Under the pieces are notes generated by a model that was not told the origin of the DNA, did not search any database, and saw only the letters and a list, made by a program, of their open reading frames with translations. A stretch of DNA of 63,093 nt, filler included, from Stramenopiles sp. TOSAG23-2 (lineage: Eukaryota): the NCBI GenBank assembly GCA_900128395.1. It is 6 parts of 6 records of this genome, joined end to end, with 100 filler letters (N's around TTAATTAATTAA, not from the genome) between each part and the next. Parts side by side here need not be neighbours in the genome. Positions count along the whole stretch, not along the records: positions 1 to 28,129 come from LT649407.1; 5 more parts are not named here. The stretch is one strand, 5' to 3'. The position numbers and the translations under genes are program-made. Positions 19,342-61,501 of this stretch are shown piece by piece (position 1 is the first letter of the stretch; the number at the start of each line of letters is the position of its first letter).

Positions 19342-22300
19342 ATGGATATAATAGGCAAGATGTTTCCATTTACACTTGTCAAAAAAAGTCATACAAATAA
19401 ATATAATATTAATAATTTTGTATCATTCCATCGTCCTTTTTATAACGTTTTATTGTTATTATTGTTATTATTCATTTTATTTTTAGATAGTAATAATAAT
19501 CGTTTTGGTCACATTTTTGTATATGCGGATGATCTAAATGGATTACCAAACCCACCACACCGACCGACATTTGTTGCGAAAACGGTAACAGCTACTACAG
19601 CAACTTTAAACTGGGCACCAGTACAAACGGATTCATCACCAGTAGTAGATTCTTTTGAAGTACAATTTAAACCTATATCGGATACGAACTGGCAAACAGC
19701 TTCTAGTACTGTTGGGAAGAGAGATAGTAATAAAGGGTTGAATGAGATTCAAATTATAACAACGCGTGCTGATGTAGGCCAGGATATTAATGATGGTTGG
19801 TTCCGTCTCTCATTGCATCATAAAGGATTAAATGATTTCGACCCGGAATCAGCAACTATGACTGATCGTATGCCATATAACGCCACTGCTTTGGAGGTTG
19901 AATATCAATTAAATATGTTAGCAAATATACAATTTACAGGCACAACAACTCATGTAACTCGTTCGTTACCAGATGCACAAGGTGGTTATCGATGGGCAGT
20001 CTCGTTTGAGCTTGGTGCAAATACCGTTGCACGAGGGGAGCAAAATGCACCATTCGATGGTACCTTACCAGCTGAAGATATACCATTACTTATATTGCAA
20101 CAAGAAAGTATTTCAGCTATATGGTCTGGTGGTGGGCTACAAGTACACCTATCAGAAGTTCGTAAAGGATCAACATTAGGTGGTGCGTGTGAGCAAACGA
20201 CGCCAACGCATGCAGGTGTTACTGGTCCTGATTATGAAAATGTTTTCATGGGTACACCAATTTGTAAATACAAAGTCGCATCGTTGCTAACGAATACACA
20301 TTATCATTTTCGTATACGTGCACATAATTTATTAGGATGGGGTCCATATAGTGGAATTAGTGAGCAAATATTAACCTTACGAGCATTTGCACCATTGACT
20401 CCAGCATCGCCAATGTACAGTTCCGGCAATAGTACCTCGATAACAGTACGTGCAGTGCCATTCGGCAATTTAGCAGACGGTGGGGAACCAATTACAGGAT
20501 GGGATTTTCAATATAGAATTGCAAATTCAGGTATTGCATGGATTCCATTTTCAGGCGGTTCCGCAAAAAGCACTTCCCCATACATGGAAGTTGCACGTGG
20601 TACTTCAGCAACAGTTGTTGGCTTGGAAAGCAATAGACAATATGAATTTCGTGTCCGTGGGCGGAATGTTATTGGGTATGGTCCATGGAGTGCAGGTAGT
20701 GAGCCAATGTCCACCTTAAGTGGTATTTCAATAGCACCATCAACCCCCGTAGTCGTTGAAAAAAGTATTTCTGAAACTACGATGGAATATCAATTTTTAC
20801 CACCAAGTGAAACAAATGGTGATACAATAGAAAAATATGAAATACATAGACGTAGTACATCTACGATAGAGAAAGGTGGGATATGGCATAGAGTTGGATA
20901 TATTGATGCAGAAAGTACAAAAGGTTTAAATGAAATACAATGGGTTCATACACGGGCGGATGTTGGTGAAAGCATTAATGATGGTTACTTTCGTTTGAAA
21001 TTTAATCATGGAGGATTAACAACAGCAGATCCTGAAAAAGGGACGATGACGGAGCGTATAAAATACGATGCAACTGCAAACGAGATGAAGCATGCTATTG
21101 AAAAATTAAAAAATGTACAAAAACTAATACGGGTTGAAAGGCACGGGCCAAATGTACAAGGTGGGTATTCATGGGAAGTCATGTTCGATGGAGAACATGA
21201 GAAAACACATGGTAATTTACCTATGATGCAATTGCATGACGAAGATATTACTGCACTTTGGACCGGTGGTGGTAGACAAGTTTACATCACGGAAGCACAA
21301 CGGGGCAGTACGAGGACCATATTGAACCAAATTACATTTAAATTGACAGGTTTGTTACCATATACTGTATATGAAACTCGTGTCCGATCTATTGGTAAAA
21401 ATGGTGTATCCACTTGGAGCAGTCCTCACAGTATTCCTGTCCGTACTAAACCAAAGTTAATGCAAGTATTGATAAAAGCACCTACCTCTACTAAATCTGT
21501 ATTGTTACTTCAAGGAAGTTTAAAAGATGCACCAAATACAATGGATCATGATTTTGCATCTGGTGCTTCATATGGAGGGGGTCTAGGTCAAAATGGGGGT
21601 AACGGCTTTGTAGTTATTACATCCTATTTGTACAACCAACAAAAGGCACCACAAACACCATTCTTTTACGTATGCCGGGGGCAGCCGTGCGAGGGTTACC
21701 CGCAGACATACACCGTCCCAGAGTCTACTGTTGAGGGAAGTAGCGTTGCTTTTGTTGAAATTAAAGCGTGGGGTGCTGGTGGTGGCGGTGGCTGTGGTAA
21801 TTTCACGCAAGGGGGTGCTGGTGGTTATGCGCAAATGAGAGCAAATGCTAAGTCTGGGGATACTTTCATTATCAGAATAGGAGGTGGTGGTGTTGGTTGC
21901 ACCGGGGAAGAAGGTGGCAATTCTGGCTACAACGGTGGCGGTGTCGGGGGCAAAGGTGATTTTGGTGGTGGCGGCGGTGGTGGAGCGACTGATGTATGGA
22001 AAGGTACTGAAATGGATCAATTGGTTTTAGTCGCTGGTGGCGGTGGTGGTGGTGGAAGTACGGATTATTGTTGTGCACATGGTGGTGCCGGTGGTGGTTA
22101 TGAAGGTGAAATGGGGCGTACTCCTCGAGCAACGCCGAAAGATAATACTGGAATCAATAAGAGAAAAGAATTCAGTACGCCAGGCCGTACGGATCCTAGA
22201 GATGAAATCGGTTTTGCTGCATATCATCAACATGTTGATATGGGTTTTGCCCCTGGAGCAAATTTGACTGAGTTGTCGACATCTGGTACAGGTGGTTCGT

Positions 22301-24921
22301 TAAGACAACTTAAAGGTGGCTTGCCTGGTGCTTCTGGTTCTTGGGAATATTCATTAGCTGGGGAAGTCTACCCATTATCAATAGAAGGAAGGCCTAAAAT
22401 TTCTGAAATCAGAGGTAGTAGCCCAGCTTCCGTAGCAACTGCTGGGCGAAGAGGTCAAGGGGGTAGAGGTCAATCTGGTAAAGAAGCAGGTGGTGGTGGA
22501 GGTGGTGGGTATTTCGGTGGTGGGGGTGGTGGAGCAGGTGTCGATGGGTCCGGTGGTGGTGGTGGCTGTGGATTTGTGAATAAATCTATTGTCTTTGACG
22601 AGGAGCATACATTTAGTTCCAGAGAAGCTTCTACACCAGAAAAGCCTGTAGCACCTCGTATAGATTATATGGATCATCGTTTAATTCGTTTATCTTGGAC
22701 ACCACCAAAATTTGGTTACTTGGCTGGACCAGCTAGTTATATTTTAGAAGTAGCTAGTGGCCCATCAAGTACTGATTTCAAAGAGATATATACCACTACT
22801 GGTCAAGGTACTACTGGTTTCAGAGGTACTATTATGCCAGATACGGATCAAACATCAATCAGCGAAGATGAGGACGAAGATCGCTTACTTTATACGTTCT
22901 TCGTTGAAGATAAATATACGGATGAAGTTGTTTCGGATATGATGCAAAGACCGATTTACCGTTTTCGAGTGCGTGCAACATCGCGTGCTCGTGGGAGTGG
23001 TTTTGTAAGTGAGCCTACCATCGTGGAAGTTCCAGGGTTACCATTGAATGAATGGACGAGGCTTGTGCCACGTCCATTCATGCTTGCCAGTGTTGGTGGT
23101 GGAAGACGTTTACATAATGGCCCAACATCTGAATTTGATCTCTATCCAGCTGCTAGAAGAGGCCACACGGTCGTGATGATAGGTGGATTTATGTATTTAT
23201 TCGGTGGTTGGCAAGAAGGATATCGTTGTGGCACACCATTTCAAAATGAACACAGGGCGGGTTTAGAAAATATTGATCCGGCGTTCCCTACACGGCCTTT
23301 TTGCAGGCGAAAACGGGGAACATCCAATGAATTATGGCGCTACGATCCTATAACCAACACATGGGCACAATTACGGACTCAAGGAACTTTGCCACCACCA
23401 CGTGAAATGCACACTGCCGTGGTGGATACTGCTAATCCTGGCTCGTTATATCATGGGAAGATGATCATATTTGGTGGCCATGGAGGTGGAAATGGCACAA
23501 CCAAGGATGGTGGACCAGGAGGATTGGAATATTTTGATGACATCTGGGAAATGGATCCTGATAGATTAACATATGAAACTACTGATGGGGGAGGAAAAAA
23601 TAAACCAATCCAAGATGGACGAAATTTATTTGTCAGTACATTTGCAAATGTAAGCTCAGATCGATGTTTAGTCGATGTTGATGTCACGGTAAACATAAAG
23701 CATGGATGTACACGTGATCTAATCATCGAGCTCTTAGGACCAAGCCATCGACACCAAGGTGTAAATCATCGAGAATCACAGCAAAGACAGCATGAACGTG
23801 GTCAATTTGATACTGGATCTGAAAGTGCGGCTGATCCACCACAAGCCAGGGACCAACGGACATTATTATTTGATGGTTTCGATGGAACAAGTTCTGGTTG
23901 CGGGGTCAATTTAGAAAACTTACGCTTTGATGATCGTGCAAACCGTACTGTTGAAGAATGCTGCCCAAGTCCATTTAAAGGCTCGTTTAGACCTGTATCC
24001 AAATTAAATGTTTACAATGATTTGCAAGTAAGAGGGGAATGGTCCTTACGAATCTATGATCAACGGGCCAATTCATTGAATGGTTCATTGGTAAACTGGG
24101 AATTGCATTTCACCATGCGTCCATGTGAGGCACGGTACAAATGGACAGATTTAAGTGCGCAAGTTAAAAGCAATAGTAATGGAGCGATCCCAAGCCCTCG
24201 TTATGGACATACTACCGTCGTAATCGATCATCAAATGTTCCTTTGGGGTGGACATGCATGGTCGCGCTATAAAGATTTATGGCGTTTGAATATTACGAGT
24301 AGAACATGGTATAAATTAAATACACGAGAGTACAGAGCACCAGAGCGTTATGGTCGTGCATCTGTCATTAGCCCATGGCAAATTTTGAATTTCGGTGGAT
24401 ATATGCACACTCGTTTTGCACCATTTCTATGGAAATATGATCCAATTAACTTTAAATGGACGCGTTTAGATACGTTCGGCGTTCCGGGTGGCCCAGTGAC
24501 GTATACACACCGTAGTACAGAGGAACCAACGCCGACGCTATATGGGGAAAATATGCCAGTAGCAAGGCAAATGACATCGCTAGTGTTAATTGGATTGAAA
24601 GGTACGCCATCAAGACAACGCGGTATATCACATCCGAAAATTTTGATGTTTGGTGGATATGATGGTATCGCATATATGGATGATTTGTGGCAATTAGATT
24701 TAAAATTGTTAGGAATCGATCATGATATGATTGGTGGTGGTGAAGAAGAAGTTAATTGGCGAAACAATTGTATATGGAGATTAAAAAAAGGATCTACGGA
24801 AGATAATTTATGGAAGAGTACATGTGATAGCCAAGGGAGTCAAACAGCAAATTGTTTAATTGATGATGTGTTGACGAGAGCATATTGTAGAAAGCAATAT
24901 CAAGGAATTATGAATTTTTAA
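19342..24921 (+). CDS. Secreted or membrane-anchored multidomain protein: FN3 repeats, Gly-rich domain, Kelch repeats, proprotein-convertase P domain
   Basis: Hydrophobic N-terminal stretch. FN3 motifs (YHFRIRAHNLLGWGPYS, YEFRVRGRNVIGYGPWS), GGGGG tracts (IKAWGAGGGGG, LVAGGGGGGG), Kelch motifs (RRGHT..MYLFGG, PPREMHT, PRYGHT) and a P domain (VTVNIKH..DL.I.L..P ... GEWSLRIYD...GSLVNWEL). Confidence 0.85.
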   Translation: MDIIGKMFPFTLVKKSHTNKYNINNFVSFHRPFYNVLLLLLLLFILFLDSNNNRFGHIFVYADDLNGLPNPPHRPTFVAKTVTATTATLNWAPVQTDSSPVVDSFEVQFKPISDTNWQTASSTVGKRDSNKGLNEIQIITTRADVGQDINDGWFRLSLHHKGLNDFDPESATMTDRMPYNATALEVEYQLNMLANIQFTGTTTHVTRSLPDAQGGYRWAVSFELGANTVARGEQNAPFDGTLPAEDIPLLILQQESISAIWSGGGLQVHLSEVRKGSTLGGACEQTTPTHAGVTGPDYENVFMGTPICKYKVASLLTNTHYHFRIRAHNLLGWGPYSGISEQILTLRAFAPLTPASPMYSSGNSTSITVRAVPFGNLADGGEPITGWDFQYRIANSGIAWIPFSGGSAKSTSPYMEVARGTSATVVGLESNRQYEFRVRGRNVIGYGPWSAGSEPMSTLSGISIAPSTPVVVEKSISETTMEYQFLPPSETNGDTIEKYEIHRRSTSTIEKGGIWHRVGYIDAESTKGLNEIQWVHTRADVGESINDGYFRLKFNHGGLTTADPEKGTMTERIKYDATANEMKHAIEKLKNVQKLIRVERHGPNVQGGYSWEVMFDGEHEKTHGNLPMMQLHDEDITALWTGGGRQVYITEAQRGSTRTILNQITFKLTGLLPYTVYETRVRSIGKNGVSTWSSPHSIPVRTKPKLMQVLIKAPTSTKSVLLLQGSLKDAPNTMDHDFASGASYGGGLGQNGGNGFVVITSYLYNQQKAPQTPFFYVCRGQPCEGYPQTYTVPESTVEGSSVAFVEIKAWGAGGGGGCGNFTQGGAGGYAQMRANAKSGDTFIIRIGGGGVGCTGEEGGNSGYNGGGVGGKGDFGGGGGGGATDVWKGTEMDQLVLVAGGGGGGGSTDYCCAHGGAGGGYEGEMGRTPRATPKDNTGINKRKEFSTPGRTDPRDEIGFAAYHQHVDMGFAPGANLTELSTSGTGGSLRQLKGGLPGASGSWEYSLAGEVYPLSIEGRPKISEIRGSSPASVATAGRRGQGGRGQSGKEAGGGGGGGYFGGGGGGAGVDGSGGGGGCGFVNKSIVFDEEHTFSSREASTPEKPVAPRIDYMDHRLIRLSWTPPKFGYLAGPASYILEVASGPSSTDFKEIYTTTGQGTTGFRGTIMPDTDQTSISEDEDEDRLLYTFFVEDKYTDEVVSDMMQRPIYRFRVRATSRARGSGFVSEPTIVEVPGLPLNEWTRLVPRPFMLASVGGGRRLHNGPTSEFDLYPAARRGHTVVMIGGFMYLFGGWQEGYRCGTPFQNEHRAGLENIDPAFPTRPFCRRKRGTSNELWRYDPITNTWAQLRTQGTLPPPREMHTAVVDTANPGSLYHGKMIIFGGHGGGNGTTKDGGPGGLEYFDDIWEMDPDRLTYETTDGGGKNKPIQDGRNLFVSTFANVSSDRCLVDVDVTVNIKHGCTRDLIIELLGPSHRHQGVNHRESQQRQHERGQFDTGSESAADPPQARDQRTLLFDGFDGTSSGCGVNLENLRFDDRANRTVEECCPSPFKGSFRPVSKLNVYNDLQVRGEWSLRIYDQRANSLNGSLVNWELHFTMRPCEARYKWTDLSAQVKSNSNGAIPSPRYGHTTVVIDHQMFLWGGHAWSRYKDLWRLNITSRTWYKLNTREYRAPERYGRASVISPWQILNFGGYMHTRFAPFLWKYDPINFKWTRLDTFGVPGGPVTYTHRSTEEPTPTLYGENMPVARQMTSLVLIGLKGTPSRQRGISHPKILMFGGYDGIAYMDDLWQLDLKLLGIDHDMIGGGEEEVNWRNNCIWRLKKGSTEDNLWKSTCDSQGSQTANCLIDDVLTRAYCRKQYQGIMNF

Positions 24922-25077
24922 AAAAGAAAAAAAGGGATAACACCACGAAGTATTTACGGTAAAAAAATATCTTGTTGTTGGTACGATTTCGTAAAAAACG
25001 AGACGCACACACACATAAAGCATGCTTCTTTTTTTTAAAAAAAATATACACATATATAGATTATATATTCGTTTTAT

Positions 25078-25962
25078 TTAACGTCTTCTGTTAAAGTTAC
25101 CTCCTCTTCTTCCTTTTCCTTTACCAAATCTTCCTCTTCCACCTCCTTGTTTTCGATTTTTACTTTGTTTTCTCATTTCGATAGAACGTTCAAAATGTTT
25201 CTTTTCCTCTTCTTCTGGTAGCATTGATACGAAAATTTGTTCGCCATTAATGTCTTTGATATCCTCACATGCTTTTTTAGCATTCTCTACTTCAGAGAAA
25301 CGAACTTCAGCATGATTTTCAAACATTTCTACAAATTCAACTTTACCAGCTGCACCAAATGCTTCTTTGATTTGACTAAAATGAATATCAACACCTTTCT
25401 TTTTAAGATCATCCAACCCATCAACTTTTAATACTGTACCTGGTTTCATTACTGGCGCTTTAAATTTACGCTTGTTGTCTCTTCTGTCAGTACTACGTGG
25501 TGTTTTTTTCCTGGACTGCGTACCAAATACAACATCTAAACATTTTCTGAAAGAAAAATCTTCACATGTGCCATCCGTACGAACAATAAAGAAACACATT
25601 GTACCCGTGTATTCAGGATGCTCGTCATATTTAAAACTTGCAAAGCCACATCCAATTTTTTCCAAATATTTTGGATGTTTCTCTAACAAAGCTTTCAATA
25701 CTGTTGCTGCTTTTCCATCAACGGTTGCACCACGGATTAAACTATCACGCAATGCACGCATGTAACTCCAGCATTCCTCCTTGTTTTGAAAGGTCATTTC
25801 ACCTAATTTACCACCAAATTTAACAGTTTTTACCAAGTTAATTTCTTTTGTGTATAAAATAGCTTTTGAGTTATTTGCTAATTCCCATGATAACTCCAAT
25901 ATACGTACACCATCTTCACGTGTATTTAAATATGTTGCTGGTCCTAATTTCGTATTTTCCAT
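25078..25962 (-). CDS. DUF3223 (DeCL-like) + RRM + RGG-tail protein
   Basis: LLEKHPKYLEKIGCG...HPEY...CFFIVRTDGTCEDFSFRKC matches DUF3223. RRM-like VLKVDGL..IKEAFG..GKVEFV..AEVRF and an RGG/FG tail follow. Start placed at MENTK (25962) because the upstream in-frame sequence is low-complexity. Confidence 0.8.
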   Translation of the reverse strand: MENTKLGPATYLNTREDGVRILELSWELANNSKAILYTKEINLVKTVKFGGKLGEMTFQNKEECWSYMRALRDSLIRGATVDGKAATVLKALLEKHPKYLEKIGCGFASFKYDEHPEYTGTMCFFIVRTDGTCEDFSFRKCLDVVFGTQSRKKTPRSTDRRDNKRKFKAPVMKPGTVLKVDGLDDLKKKGVDIHFSQIKEAFGAAGKVEFVEMFENHAEVRFSEVENAKKACEDIKDINGEQIFVSMLPEEEEKKHFERSIEMRKQSKNRKQGGGRGRFGKGKGRRGGNFNRRR

Positions 25963-26817
25963 GATATTGTTATTTAGTATGATTATATATAAATCTATAT
26001 CTTGTTGTTTTTGTTTTATTTTCTCCTGCTCTTTACTTGTATATAATTCTACACACACACACATATATATATCCATCTCATCTTCACATCATCCAGATAT
26101 ATATATATATTTGATGCATAACATATTCGCGAATCAATGGTTATGGTTGCAATCGGAGGAAGGAGGAAGGAAGGAAAATTGGCCAAATTAAAATACATTT
26201 TACTGCTGCTGTGGCACCAACGGAAATTTATTCGCAAAAAATAATTGATCTCTAATATTAGAAATATAATGTTATTTCTATTTTAATAAGGTAGGTTTAA
26301 GGTATTGGTATAATATTTGATATGTTGTTTTAGTCTGCGTCGTCAAACTCTTTCTTTCTAATCTTGTTTTAGTATTAATTTATAATCTGTTCCAACTATC
26401 CTTTGGTCTTTTGACAATAATTAAACAATACCCTTAATACCCATCATCAAATTTCACCATCCAGAAATTCTCTTCTTTTTTTTTTTTATTTGATATGAAG
26501 CGCCAATACCAACTTAATACAGTCCAGCAGTGTGTATATATATTATGTCTTGGTACATGCAAAAAAGAAATAATATAAAAGTAGTTTAAGTTCAAAACCA
26601 CAGGAATATATATATAGCAAGCCTGAAAAGCAAAAAAAGGTATTCAATATTATATATTAGATAGATAGATAGTCATCTCGTCTACATACAATAGTTTGAT
26701 ATACCAAGGTAAATAATAAATATCAGATATACAAATATATATATAAATTATATATTCCATTTATTATTACTTGAGAAGGTATATATACTTTCATAATCAC
26801 ATATCAGAATAATAATA

Positions 26818-27333
26818 ATGCCGTCATTAAAGAAAAGAAATGTCATCAGAGAAAATAAGAAAAGTGGAATTGAAGATGGTGGGTGGGATGGTGGGTCTAG
26901 GTTTGAAAATGAATTAATTAAAATTGAAGCAAGAAATGATATACTGGCACATAGTTGGAGAAATGTATTAGCAATAATAAGTTTTATTATGATGGGGTTT
27001 TGTTTATACAATGCATGGATAGATCAACATAATAATCAATATCAATCAATATTTGAAATTACTTCTGGTTTAATAAGTGCGTCTGTTGTCCGTTTTGCCA
27101 TGAGCTCGCCAACAAGCGGATTTGAAAGAGCATTGCAAATTGCTGGTATTGTCCAATTTGTTGTATGGGCATTTTTGACAAAGAATGAATATATATACCA
27201 TATCCATTGTTTACCATTAGGTTCAATGAATGCATTACTTGCAACTTCATCTTTTATGTTTCTCCGTTCAATGAAAAAAAAAACACTGAAATCAATTTCT
27301 ACCTTGCGAGAATTGAAAGAAAAAGTAAACTAA
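26818..27333 (+). CDS. Small multi-pass membrane protein of unknown function
   Basis: 171-aa ORF with about four hydrophobic segments, flanked by AT-rich intergenic DNA. Confidence 0.6.
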   Translation: MPSLKKRNVIRENKKSGIEDGGWDGGSRFENELIKIEARNDILAHSWRNVLAIISFIMMGFCLYNAWIDQHNNQYQSIFEITSGLISASVVRFAMSSPTSGFERALQIAGIVQFVVWAFLTKNEYIYHIHCLPLGSMNALLATSSFMFLRSMKKKTLKSISTLRELKEKVN

Positions 27334-27797
27334 TCCTAATATATAAGAAGAAAGGTATATATTTTTAATATATATATACTATTAAAAATAATATTATATT
27401 ATTACATGTGTTTTGATTTTTGGAGTAATAAATTAAATAAAATAATTATCAGATTTTTTAAAAAATACGGAGTCTAATTCCAATTTTTACAATATTTTTA
27501 CAAATTTCCGATTATTCATATATTTACCATCCTATTTATATATATAAAATGAATATAATTTTTAAACTATAGAAATCAACAAAAATCCCATACATGTTTA
27601 TACCTCTAGGGTATACATACATAGTAATACTAATATGTTGTGGCCACAATAATAATAAATTCAATATATTATTAGAGAGATACATTGAATGTGAATATAT
27701 ACAAATATACAAAGAAGAATATATCATATAATATAAATTTCCAACAAACATATAACAGAAAAAAAAGGAGAAGAAGAAACGTTTTAACATACACAAT

Positions 27798-28129
27798 ATG
27801 GCAAGTATAGCTGAACAAGAAAAAACAAAATTAGGTCTAGCTAGATATTTAAAAACACGTGAAGATGGTGTACGTGAATTAGAATTATCTTGGGAATTAG
27901 CAAATAATTCAAAAGCAATATTATATACAAAAAGACAAAATACAAAACGAATCAATGGAAAACAAATATCGATTGCAATTAAAGATGAGGTTGCAAACGG
28001 GGTGAAAGAGTTAAAAGAATCTATCAATGTTGTCCCAGGTCTAGGTACGATATTAGTAGGTCAACGCCAGGATAGTGCTCTATATGTTCGAATGAAAAAT
28101 AAAGCAGCAGATAAAGTAGGTTTCTATCA
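27798..28129 (+). CDS. folD: Methylenetetrahydrofolate dehydrogenase/cyclohydrolase (FolD family), 3' truncated by scaffold end
   Basis: INGKQIS..IKDEV...PGLGTILVGQRQDSALYVRMKNKAADKVG is the FolD N-terminus including YxxxK. Confidence 0.9.
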
Positions 28130-28229
28130 NNNNNNNNNNNNNNNNNNNNNNNNNNNNNNNNNNNNNNNNNNNNTTAATTAATTAANNNNNNNNNNNNNNN
28201 NNNNNNNNNNNNNNNNNNNNNNNNNNNNN
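28130..28229. other. Artificial scaffold linker
   Basis: 44 N + TTAATTAATTAA (stops in all six frames) + 44 N. Confidence 0.98.
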
Positions 28230-29022
28230 GTAAAGTTAAAAAAAGAAGTGGTGGTGCAGTGGTGATGACATCACCATCATCATAGGATGGATTTCCTGGA
28301 TTCTTGTTGCTCTTAGTGTTGTGGTAGTGCTATTCGTCTTCCAGGAAAGAGGTTGACCAAATGATGCAAAAAATCCCCTCGATTCCTTGGATCATAAGAT
28401 GTCATATTATATTATATATATATATTGTTTCGTGTTATATATTTGTATGTATTATTTGTATCTACATTACAGCTGTATATATATGTAGTATATTTTATTC
28501 AAATTATATATATGCACGCACCTTCGTTTTGTAAAGTTAAAAAAAGAAGTGGTGGTGCAGTGGTGATGACATCACCATCATCATAGGATGGATTTCCTGG
28601 ATTCTTGTTAGATTACATTACTGTCTTAGTGTTGTGGTAGTGCTATTCGTCTTCCAGGAAAGAGGTTGACCAAATGATGCTCTGTCCAGCTGTTATAGCA
28701 TGCCAGGCATGCAAAAAATCAAAAAATTCAAAAGTGGTAGAGCTACCCTACTCAGAACATGAAAGTTAACTTTGTTATAGTACAATGATCCTATAATAGC
28801 ATGCAATGCTGTAAGTAGTAAATATTATCCACTCGTTACAGCACAGGAACAATATCCACCAATATGGGACCTAGATAGAAATCAATTTGAATACTTACAT
28901 GATATGATGAACTTAAAATGATTGCATTAAACTTCTTTGAAAATTTTGGAATACATTTACTGAACAAAACTAAATAATAAAATATAAATGATGCATAATT
29001 AAAATTATGAGATCTATGCTAT

Positions 29023-56321: not shown

Positions 56322-56421
56322 NNNNNNNNNNNNNNNNNNNNNNNNNNNNNNNNNNNNNNNNNNNNTTAATTAATTAANNNNNNNNNNNNNNNNNNNNNNN
56401 NNNNNNNNNNNNNNNNNNNNN
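56322..56421. other. Artificial scaffold linker
   Basis: 44 N + TTAATTAATTAA + 44 N. Confidence 0.98.
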
Positions 56422-58015: not shown

Positions 58016-58115
58016 NNNNNNNNNNNNNNNNNNNNNNNNNNNNNNNNNNNNNNNNNNNNTTAATTAATTAANNNNNNNNNNNNNNNNNNNNNNNNNNNNN
58101 NNNNNNNNNNNNNNN
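58016..58115. other. Artificial scaffold linker
   Basis: 44 N + TTAATTAATTAA + 44 N. Confidence 0.98.
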
Positions 58116-59708: not shown

Positions 59709-59808
59709 NNNNNNNNNNNNNNNNNNNNNNNNNNNNNNNNNNNNNNNNNNNNTTAATTAATTAANNNNNNNNNNNNNNNNNNNNNNNNNNNNNNNNNNNN
59801 NNNNNNNN
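59709..59808. other. Artificial scaffold linker
   Basis: 44 N + TTAATTAATTAA + 44 N. Confidence 0.98.
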
Positions 59809-61401
59809 TACCAGCTGCTAGCGCATTAGACATTCCAGCTCCATATTGGAAAGTTTGCGTTAAATTACCTACATTTAAAATTACATTTTTTGGAACACCT
59901 TTGGCAGCTAATGGCGCAACCAGAGGCTTAACATTTTTCCATGCCATACTCAAAATAGTCCATGAATTGCCAATAGTAGTATAATCGTCATCATTGAATG
60001 GGTTTGCTTTTGAGTCTGGTTTNNNNNNNNNNNNNNNNNNNNNNNNNNNNNNNNNNNNNNNNNNNNNNNNNNNNNNNNNNNNNNNNNNNNNNNNNNNNNN
60101 NNNNNNNNNNNNNNNNNNNNNNNNNNNNNNNNNNNNNNNNNNNNNNNNNNNNNNNNNNNNNNNNNNNNNNNNNNNNNNNNNNNNNNNNNNNNNNNNNNNN
60201 NNNNNNACAAATCTAAATAATCTTGTCGTTTTTGCTTGATCCCAACTTCGTATATTTGCAGCGGTTAACGTTCTACCAATTGCTTTTGCTGGTACGCCAA
60301 TTGCAGCATCAGTATTAGCTTTTTTAAGGAAACAAGATAATTCTATTTCTGGATAAGCTGTATTAACCATTTGTAAATATGGTAAAATAGAAGACCCGGT
60401 AGGACACTCTGCTTTATCCTCTGTCGCATTGTAATAACCTTTGCCTACTACGGAATTTTTTGCCCATTGATTTGGCATAACATTGCCAGCTGAGTAAGAA
60501 GTACCTTCTGTTATAGTCGAGTAAAGTTCAAACACTTTTTTTGTAATTGCGCATCGAACTTCTTTAGATGCACCGCCGGCATAAGCTAATAATGCTGAAT
60601 TACCATCTCCAGCACCTGCAGTCATATTACAAACTCCTTTGTTCATAGTAGGTGCACCAGCACCAACTGCTTCCGCCATCCAGAACCCAATCCCTGTTGC
60701 TGATTTAAGGCTAATGTCAATGCCTGTAGGTGCAACTATACCATCTGATCCTGCAGCAGGAAAAAGTTTTGCATAAGCACCTGCACTTAAGTAAGTTGTG
60801 TTTGCATTTACGTCAAGCTTTAATAAGTCGAAATTGCCTTGTTTCGCTGATGTTGGTGGATTAGCATTTGCAGTTGCTCGCACAGATGAAAAAGCACTTA
60901 AGTAAGCGGAGCTAGATCTAAATAAAGTTTCAAAGTTTNNNNNNNNNNNNNNNNNNNNNNNNNNNNNNNNNNNNNNNNNNNNNNNNNNNNNNNNNNNNNN
61001 NNNNNNNNNNNNNNNNNNNNNCTGAAGTCACTCCTCCTAGACTAGAAGCATGACCAGCTATTAAATTGGCTGCAGTAGAACCAAACATTGATTGTATAGC
61101 GGTTTCATCAACCATTCCAATTGGCGGCATGACGTCTAAAGCATTTAGCAATCCAAGATATCCATTGTTTATCGCGGTAATAGTATTATAAGCCTTGTTG
61201 CCATCGTCATGTGCAATTTTTCCATAAACACATTGTGTAGGTGTTTTCGTTTTTGTTGCTTTAGGCCATGAAGCGCATAATCTATCAGTGGCGCATTTTG
61301 GGCATAGTTTCTTCGTTGCTGCATCATCAATCAATTTAAAACTCCTGCCAGTGCGTTCTACGGTGTCCCGGCTTTTGTGATGTGTCATGGTGTAAGATCG
61401 G
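59809..61401 (-). CDS. Fragments of a large Ala/Gly/Cys-rich, probably extracellular protein of unknown function
   Basis: Long open frames on the - strand, interrupted by N gaps. Confidence 0.5.
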
Positions 61402-61501
61402 NNNNNNNNNNNNNNNNNNNNNNNNNNNNNNNNNNNNNNNNNNNNTTAATTAATTAANNNNNNNNNNNNNNNNNNNNNNNNNNNNNNNNNNNNNNNNNNN
61501 N
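61402..61501. other. Artificial scaffold linker
   Basis: 44 N + TTAATTAATTAA + 44 N. Confidence 0.98.

Follow-up and report, generated by a model that had tools for sequence, protein, structure and literature searches.

The locus examined here raises the question of why two unrelated genes that face away from each other begin with nearly the same short peptide. The genes lie in a 63,093-nucleotide stretch of DNA from Stramenopiles sp. TOSAG23-2 (GenBank assembly GCA_900128395.1; positions 1-28129 come from LT649407.1), hereafter the window. One gene, on the minus strand, encodes a DUF3223-RRM protein. The other, on the plus strand, encodes FolD. A first-pass annotation had described a 36-residue N-terminal module on both genes and had proposed that it is a portable leader recruited by a local inverted duplication. 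The module, hereafter the unit, is shown below to be a conserved, translated and autonomous segment common to many unrelated proteins. The account that we consider probable as a whole is that the unit is a promiscuous barrel domain of about 50 residues, that it was copied in inverted orientation from the DUF3223-RRM gene onto FolD, that selection has kept it there, and that it may act as a docking module. The locus is a clear case of domain capture involving a domain family that lacks a Pfam model, and it presents no new kind of biology.

The repeated unit and its two host genes

The features on which the argument depends are as follows.

25846-25959, minus strand: unit copy at the N-terminus of the DUF3223-RRM protein, codons 2-39 (ENTKLG...AILYTK); repeat arm; 60.8 bits with the hidden Markov model (HMM) of the family
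27819-27932, plus strand: unit copy at the N-terminus of FolD, codons 8-45 (EKTKLG...AILYTK); repeat arm; 65.0 bits with the family HMM
25078-25962, minus strand: DUF3223(DeCL)-RRM_3 gene, 294 residues from MEN, with a K/R/G-rich tail; identified with Pfam; likely donor of the unit
27798-28129, plus strand: first 110 codons of the FolD gene (5' part); the Pfam THF_DHG_CYH domain starts at residue 52
26818-27333, plus strand: open reading frame (ORF) of 171 residues (ORF171) between the arms, with no Pfam family; RNA-library contigs over 26822-27233
28130-28229, no strand: assembly gap and linker (N runs around TTAATTAATTAA), which cuts FolD after codon 110

The two copies are the arms of a 114-nucleotide inverted pair (I1) that is 86% complementary, with 1859 nucleotides between the arms. 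In the same repeat search, no other real inverted pair above 34 nucleotides or above 74% is found within 24900-28300. The 36-residue core first described (25846-25953 and 27825-27932) is exact, and the repeat extends two codons further on the 5' side. The 100-nucleotide flanks of the two arms have ungapped identities of 30% and 21%, which is the chance level for AT-rich DNA. When one copy is used as a tblastn query against the 63-kb window, the other copy is recovered with an E-value of 4.5e-18 and the next match has an E-value of 0.48.

The earlier codon counts are correct: the 36 core codons contain 10 synonymous changes and four amino-acid-changing codons, the latter amounting to five nucleotide changes. 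Across the 38 common codons, 16 of 114 nucleotides differ (10 synonymous and 6 nonsynonymous differences). The synonymous divergence (dS) is 0.58, the nonsynonymous divergence (dN) is 0.07, and dN/dS is 0.12. The excess of changes at synonymous sites between the arms has a Fisher p of 1.6e-4 over these codons.

The Pfam domains of both hosts start outside the unit, which, as had been supposed, forms no part of FolD or DUF3223 in their Pfam definitions. In the DUF3223-RRM protein, DUF3223 (PF11523; 78.5 bits against a cut-off of 21) spans residues 82-142 and RRM_3 spans residues 175-276. Matches among PDB sequences include 2k0m_A (E 3.5e-9) and the DeCL region of the largest subunit of Pol V (E 1.6e-9), and the DeCL region of the Pol IV largest subunit is also matched. 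Both fusions recur in database proteins that derive from short, transcript-like contigs. One of these, P0009, matches the window DUF3223-RRM protein (100% BLASTP identity, one residue different). Only the first 57 positions of the Pfam THF_DHG_CYH model are present in the window FolD, with residues 111-343 outside the window. The complete 343-residue protein of unit plus FolD is P0005 (33 member sequences), with 99% identity to the window FolD across 110 residues. In P0005, THF_DHG_CYH (126.5 bits) and THF_DHG_CYH_C (215.3 bits) are both above cut-off. Downstream of the unit, the window FolD offers no in-frame methionine before residue 98, and an intact enzyme therefore requires translation of the unit.

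The probable donor resembles the alveolate La proteins with DUF3223, such as Mlp1 of Tetrahymena, in that it contains DUF3223, a La-type RRM (RRM_3) and a basic tail. In PMC7928011, a La motif combined with DUF3223 is presented as the alveolate form of La, and according to PMC9705548, tRNA-mediated suppression by Mlp1 requires its DUF3223 region. Unlike these proteins, the window protein has no La motif, and the barrel unit occupies the N-terminus in its place. The window protein may be an RNA chaperone that is akin to La but built differently.

The unit belongs to a large domain family

A profile of 45 columns (A3), made from six unit sequences, was searched against 1.84 billion representative proteins with a threshold of E<=1e-3. 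It matches 109 proteins, 23 of them at E<=1e-10. The segment is therefore portable, as first proposed, in that it is found on many unrelated proteins, and it is not a leader private to this locus. With a local HMM, 251 units are counted in the 109 proteins, with 1 to 10 per protein (one in 47 proteins, two in 29, three in 12, four in 11, five in 6, eight in 2 and ten in 2). The consensus of 189 units is vGd.V.T.yG.G.v.e.R.DGv.vVeL.sWkLAngskp.lYl. In an alignment of 95 rows with one unit per protein (A4), every row has the W and the first G, and conservation is 90% or more at R, D, L and A.

Within the window, the FolD frame matches positions 4-53 of the family HMM and the DUF3223-RRM frame matches positions 10-52. 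No other window frame exceeds 5 bits in a six-frame scan that covered the window and L002, the related metagenome locus described below. Both window copies retain the conserved R, DG, W, LA and Y. In the G-x-G motif, however, an A replaces the second G in both (GLA and GPA) and also in P0011.

Pfam scans of 105 of the 106 new matches (P0087, of 38 residues, was left out) assign the unit itself to no family but place at least 14 kinds of partner domain beside it. Partners above cut-off are TBCC, AMP-binding with Carn_acyltransf, MFS_1 (two proteins), TauE, and Sterol-sensing with PAE. Further partners are FPL with CLEC16A_C, APP1_cat, GRASP55_65, AMPK1_CBM, zf-rbx1 (RING), C2, TPR and DUF3223. 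The unit is N-terminal in P0038, P0066, P0089 and P0102, C-terminal in P0057, P0063 and P0078, and internal in P0067, P0082 and P0094.

The first-pass annotation had named a match to a known domain as one result that would tell against its reading. This applies only by half: the unit does belong to a large domain family, but no Pfam model covers that family. None of 95 single units scores above a Pfam cut-off, and the commonest weak family is matched by 3 of the 95. PcrA_UvrD_tudor, PTM_DIR17_Tudor and Chromo_SEND1 are each matched by one unit of the 95, with E-values of 0.036-0.15 and without reaching the cut-off. Whole multi-unit proteins have no Tudor, KOW or SH3 match above the Pfam cut-off. 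The unit is thus, as judged from sequence, a large domain family that has no Pfam model and is promiscuous in marine protists. In two cluster look-ups, the only organism names are Triparma strigata and T. verrucosa, and the entries are labelled 'hypothetical protein'. Literature searches brought up no account of the unit, nor of a FolD extended in this way, which is weak evidence of absence because the unit has no name by which to search.

CaaX-like ends occur in 8 of the 109 matches and MGxxxS/T starts in about 8, mostly in multi-unit proteins. These motifs are presumably prenylation and myristoylation signals, and they suggest that arrays of the unit are lipid-anchored. The lipid-motif carriers are P0033, P0034, P0043, P0064, P0071, P0098, P0101 and P0130, together with P0044, P0045, P0048, P0054, P0076 and P0103.

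Predicted fold

In the AlphaFold2 model of FolD residues 1-55, made with the 95-row alignment, the mean predicted local distance difference test (pLDDT) score is 80.8 and strands are predicted at residues 7-10, 13-20, 25-34 and 38-45. The modelled FolD unit has four long strands and a short bridge, compared with the five-strand barrel of about 50-60 residues that is typical of an SH3-like fold. When the DUF3223-RRM protein is modelled in full with AlphaFold2 (9 alignment rows; mean pLDDT 69.3), the unit strands are E2-4, E7-14, E20-27 and E33-38. This model is divided into the unit (1-40), a linker (41-50; pLDDT 33), DeCL (51-148), the RRM (177-268) and a disordered basic tail. The low pLDDT of the linker between the unit and DeCL makes the unit look like a separate module.

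The best rows of a Foldseek search of the PDB are the PcrA/UvrD Tudor domain (5dma), SGF29, the PHF20 Tudor domain, SH3, Agenet, KOW and PsaE. In a VIA-align comparison with 48,161 chains, 35 have Z>=5. The top rows are all SH3-like barrels (KOW, Tudor, PsaE/NdhS, SH3, chromo and PWWP) with Z of 5.0-6.5; none reaches Z>=8, below which a match may reflect a common arrangement only, and this tells against the barrel reading. So do the absence of any Foldseek match to the PDB at E<=1e-3 (best E 0.18) and the dependence of the assignment on a predicted model. The Atlas model of P0034 adjoins clusters of SPT5-KOW, Agenet and SH3_3, and a feature search with residues 1680-1800 of P0057 leads to a Tudor cluster (0.77); both are leads only. 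A feature search with P0034 in the Atlas gives no usable match. For two copies of the unit, complex prediction gave 'no answer' (a score of 0.00 with an uncertain partner fold and the alignment unused), which is evidence in neither direction. With moderate confidence, the models place the unit in the SH3-like barrel class, and in no named family.

The unit is like the known SH3-like small beta-barrels (the Tudor/Agenet/chromo 'royal family', KOW, SH3 and PsaE/NdhS) in its length of about 50 residues, its predicted all-beta topology and its frequent tandem arrays. The SMN Tudor domain and the KOW domains of Spt5 and NusG are also among its structural neighbours. Unlike those barrels, the unit has no match at the level of sequence (0 of 95 above the Pfam cut-off). 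We take its signature, G-x-G...R-x-DG...W-x-LA...Y, to differ from the KOW and SH3 motifs.

Origin of the FolD copy

The metagenome locus L002, from a relative, encodes the FolD protein P0007 exactly and a DUF3223-RRM protein that is 75% identical to that of the window. The gene order in L002 is FolD, ORF171, DUF3223-RRM and a giant FN3 protein. Both units are present there in divergent orientation, and ORF171 is in the same position with 73% identity. Since L002 keeps the gene order and both units, the capture predates the split between the window species and that of L002. An additional 1049-residue ORF with no Pfam family (L002:1695-4844, plus strand) separates FolD from ORF171. The window has no such ORF, and its FolD begins 465 nucleotides past ORF171; the difference is, from sequence comparison, an apparent insertion in one lineage or deletion in the other.

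Proteins with the unit and DUF3223 include the orthologue P0011 (69% identity), the more distant orthologue P0015 (44% identity) and P0060, and P0047 resembles a fragment of this type. P0011 begins MESTKLG, and P0015 has a complete first strand (KGDTYKT). The unit joined to FolD is found by word-based search only in the window form and in P0007. The unit thus appears to be older and wider on the DUF3223-RRM gene than on FolD. In a tree of 95 units, the clade (DeCL_P0011,(DeCL_win,(FolD_win,FolD_P0007))) has a Shimodaira-Hasegawa-like approximate likelihood ratio test (SH-aLRT) value of 98, and all other units are at a path distance of >1.1 from these four. The copies are thus each other's closest kin as well as a local inverted pair, which upholds the proposal of a local inverted duplication. 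Most likely, FolD copied its unit from the adjacent DUF3223-RRM gene.

Selection on the peptide, which the first-pass annotation had suggested, is supported by the comparison of the arms (dN/dS 0.12) and again by that of the species. For the window against L002, dN/dS is 0.08 in the FolD unit (dS 0.79) and 0.06 in FolD codons 52-110; it is 0.17 in the DUF3223-RRM unit and 0.04 in the DeCL body. P0005 and P0007 are identical at 31 of 36 residues of the unit and at 270 of 292 residues of the FolD body. The similar dN/dS of the FolD unit and the enzyme body indicates that the unit is constrained on FolD in its own right.

The following sequence of events would account for these patterns. The common 36-38 residues would represent, on each gene, a single copy of a domain of about 50 residues that is predicted to fold as an all-beta SH3/Tudor/KOW-like barrel. 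Among marine protists, the domain forms tandem arrays with lipid motifs and is also added, singly or doubly, to many enzymes, transporters and adaptors that are not related to one another. Before the capture, the DUF3223-RRM RNA-binding protein of this lineage would already have had the unit at its N-terminus. An inverted partial duplication of the 5' coding end of that gene, about 2 kb away, would have put a copy before FolD, which would have gained the new start MASIAEQ. This capture would have preceded the split of the two species, and both copies would since have been transcribed in frame with their genes and maintained by purifying selection.

These events are like domain or exon shuffling by local segmental duplication in that a 5' coding segment reappears inverted on a neighbour 2 kb off, the edges of the copy are the edges of the domain, and the fusion is conserved in a sister species. 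In contrast to that model, only the selected part is recognisable here (dS about 0.6), and the original extent, the breakpoints and the choice of a DNA or RNA mechanism are not readable.

Several observations count against parts of this account. The dS between the paralogous units within a genome (0.60 and 0.83) is lower than that across genomes (1.09 and 1.09), as measured on about 24 synonymous sites. The DUF3223-RRM unit of L002 contains an intron that is absent from the FolD copies, so that plain duplication of DNA is not the sole possible route. The window copies depart from the family consensus (G-x-A in place of G-x-G), and the DUF3223-RRM copy begins at the first strand, without vGd.V. 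The direction of copying depends on a tree of 55 columns that leaves 57 of its 92 inner branches open, and on a word-based search that is liable to overlook distant FolD carriers. The 50% clustering of the large library can hide FolD proteins that bear the unit.

The low dS within genomes may hint at some gene conversion between the arms. In its strong form, FolD and the DUF3223-RRM gene would have acquired their units independently long ago, and conversion between the arms would mimic recent paralogy. Inverted repeats 2 kb apart are good substrates for gene conversion, and the dS of the units (0.6-0.8) is below that of the gene bodies (1.45-1.95), which also speaks for this reading. We consider independent acquisition unlikely. 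In the tree, the two species' FolD units cluster with each other, and they have in common the derived states ARYL and RELEL, which the DUF3223-RRM units do not have. Any conversion was therefore neither recent nor complete. In addition, no FolD with a divergent unit is found by the word-based and profile searches.

The intron bears on a second route, in which a spliced DUF3223-RRM transcript, whole or in part, was reverse-transcribed and inserted upstream of FolD. The intron is 123 nucleotides long (L002:7513-7635; GTATGT..ACAG) and splits the L002 unit after codon 13. Both FolD copies lack it. The gene calls P0010, P0012 and P0013 start just downstream of the same point, which suggests that it may occur in many relatives. 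Its gain or loss may postdate the copying, or the copy may have been made from spliced RNA. The window DUF3223-RRM gene also lacks this intron, however, and loss or late gain of the intron fits equally well. The position of the copy 2 kb from its source favours a local rearrangement of DNA, and at a dS of 0.6 no poly-A trace or target-site duplication is recognisable. An RNA intermediate is considered quite unlikely, and the inverted copy of DNA remains the preferred explanation.

Possible role of the unit

The unit would be a folded module for docking or for ligand binding, through which its carriers are brought to a common partner or location, and not a cleavable targeting peptide. This role is inferred from the predicted fold class, the tandem arrays and the largely membrane-proximal partners. 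These partners comprise repeat proteins with lipid motifs, transporters (at their cytosolic ends) and GRASP, C2 and APP1 domains.

The first-pass annotation had read the unit as a leader, that is, a targeting, degron or processing tag. A cleavable or signal-type leader would suit its N-terminal position on both window genes and in the carriers P0038, P0066, P0089 and P0102, and the body of the eukaryotic FolD begins only at residue 52. Eukaryotic folate enzymes can have N-terminal presequences for mitochondrial or plastid targeting, and the window FolD is like them in that an extension precedes a complete FolD body. Unlike such presequences, the extension is predicted to be folded, is acidic, has a dN/dS of 0.08 and is homologous to units that are internal or C-terminal elsewhere. 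Arrays of up to 10 units, the predicted beta structure and the composition of the unit, which is rich in acidic residues (7 D/E in residues 5-33 of the FolD unit) and has no hydrophobic core, also speak against a leader. The leader reading is accordingly not upheld and is very unlikely.

A broader form of the docking reading is doubtful and is given as speculation. The unit could define an undescribed adaptor family centred on stramenopiles, in which lipid-anchored arrays (with CaaX-like ends or MGxxxS starts) and unit-tagged transporters would mark a cytosolic membrane platform. The same barrel would recruit soluble clients such as FolD, a La-like RNA chaperone, a TBCC protein and an acyl-CoA synthetase-carnitine acyltransferase to this platform, and one-carbon metabolism and RNA handling would be co-localised through a 2-kb inverted exon copy.

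The locus represents a recent and well-bounded domain capture, in which a housekeeping enzyme most likely took a module, predicted to be folded, from the first exon of its neighbour and in which selection holds the module as tightly as the FolD catalytic body. A model of the unit family would improve the annotation of marine protist genomes and metatranscriptomes and would give a handle on the role of the repeat proteins with lipid motifs. The finding is of interest to researchers of protist genomes and of protein domains.

Transcription of the two copies

Contigs from four RNA libraries (polyA or cDNA metatranscriptomes from four studies) were aligned to 25000-28129. These data are assembled contigs, which show contiguity and not transcription starts or expression levels, and intergenic stretches without coverage were not used. 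The contigs are colinear with the genome. The junction between the unit and body of the DUF3223-RRM gene is spanned in 4 of 4 runs, with coverage of 25071-26042. The FolD junction is spanned in 2 of 4 runs (X15 record 6 and X18 record 29), and the transcript-derived P0003 runs from the 5' untranslated region through the unit into FolD. No joint is present at either junction among the contigs of the four libraries. Both units are thus joined in frame to their genes without splicing at the junctions.

That the repeat is an artefact of assembly or annotation, or that the FolD copy is an untranslated or neutral passenger, is extremely improbable: the window is a scaffold with linker-filled gaps and several unit-carrying database proteins are chimeric (P0006, P0008 and P0016), but the arms differ at 16 of 114 nucleotides, both copies recur in L002, which is an independent genomic contig from a relative, RNA-library contigs span both junctions, FolD has no alternative in-frame start before residue 98, and its unit has a dN/dS of 0.08. 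The earlier view that the pair is not an assembly duplicate is thereby sustained.

A spliced leader or trans-spliced 5' exon is rejected, as each unit adjoins its gene at the genomic locus, both in the window and in L002, and the RNA contigs are colinear with the genome. A joint from 26583 to 27929, seen in one contig (X16, side 22), was set aside as unreliable. Contigs from X16 (861 nucleotides) and X17 (251 nucleotides) match 27890-27932 only, with four letters different and with other sequence on either side. Their flanks, translated by hand (..PDGVDVIELS and AKGFRAIDGT), resemble the second unit of the TBCC protein P0038, which indicates that they derive from another unit-bearing transcript and not from FolD.

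A candidate third carrier, P0006, has the unit followed by an unrelated 69-residue tail and comes from a singleton 600-nucleotide contig. It is best read as a chimera at a common ILYT, since P0018 reads ..LILYT|LTEEW.. where P0006 switches after ..AILYT. The tail belongs to a family of 125-129 residues that, in our reading, has its own hydrophobic, signal-like N-terminal start. This family (P0017-P0032) lies outside the window and forms large clusters, with 178 (P0017) and 145 member sequences; its member P0018 has no Pfam match. P0008 and P0016 are singleton contigs like P0006 and are treated as chimeric. Their tails are absent from the window.

Other features of the window

The window is AT-rich (27-45% GC) and contains long ORFs with FN3, Kelch, LRR and RRM domains, and its content is eukaryote-like. 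Its sequence is also found in marine metagenomes and polyA metatranscriptomes. A scan of 25900-27900 for bacterial promoters and terminators finds 19 promoter-like sites, with 19.7 expected, and no terminators, and is irrelevant to a eukaryote.

Five gaps, each with the TTAATTAATTAA linker between N runs, are present at 28130-28229, 56322-56421, 58016-58115, 59709-59808 and 61402-61501. They identify the window as a scaffold of joined contigs, so that sequence past 28229 need not adjoin FolD. Plain N runs occur at 60023-60206 and 60939-61021.

The giant FN3 protein (1859 residues; 19342-24921, plus strand) contains FN3, an ALK/LTK glycine-rich domain, Kelch repeats and a proprotein-convertase P-domain. 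Its last 600 residues are 92% conserved in L002.

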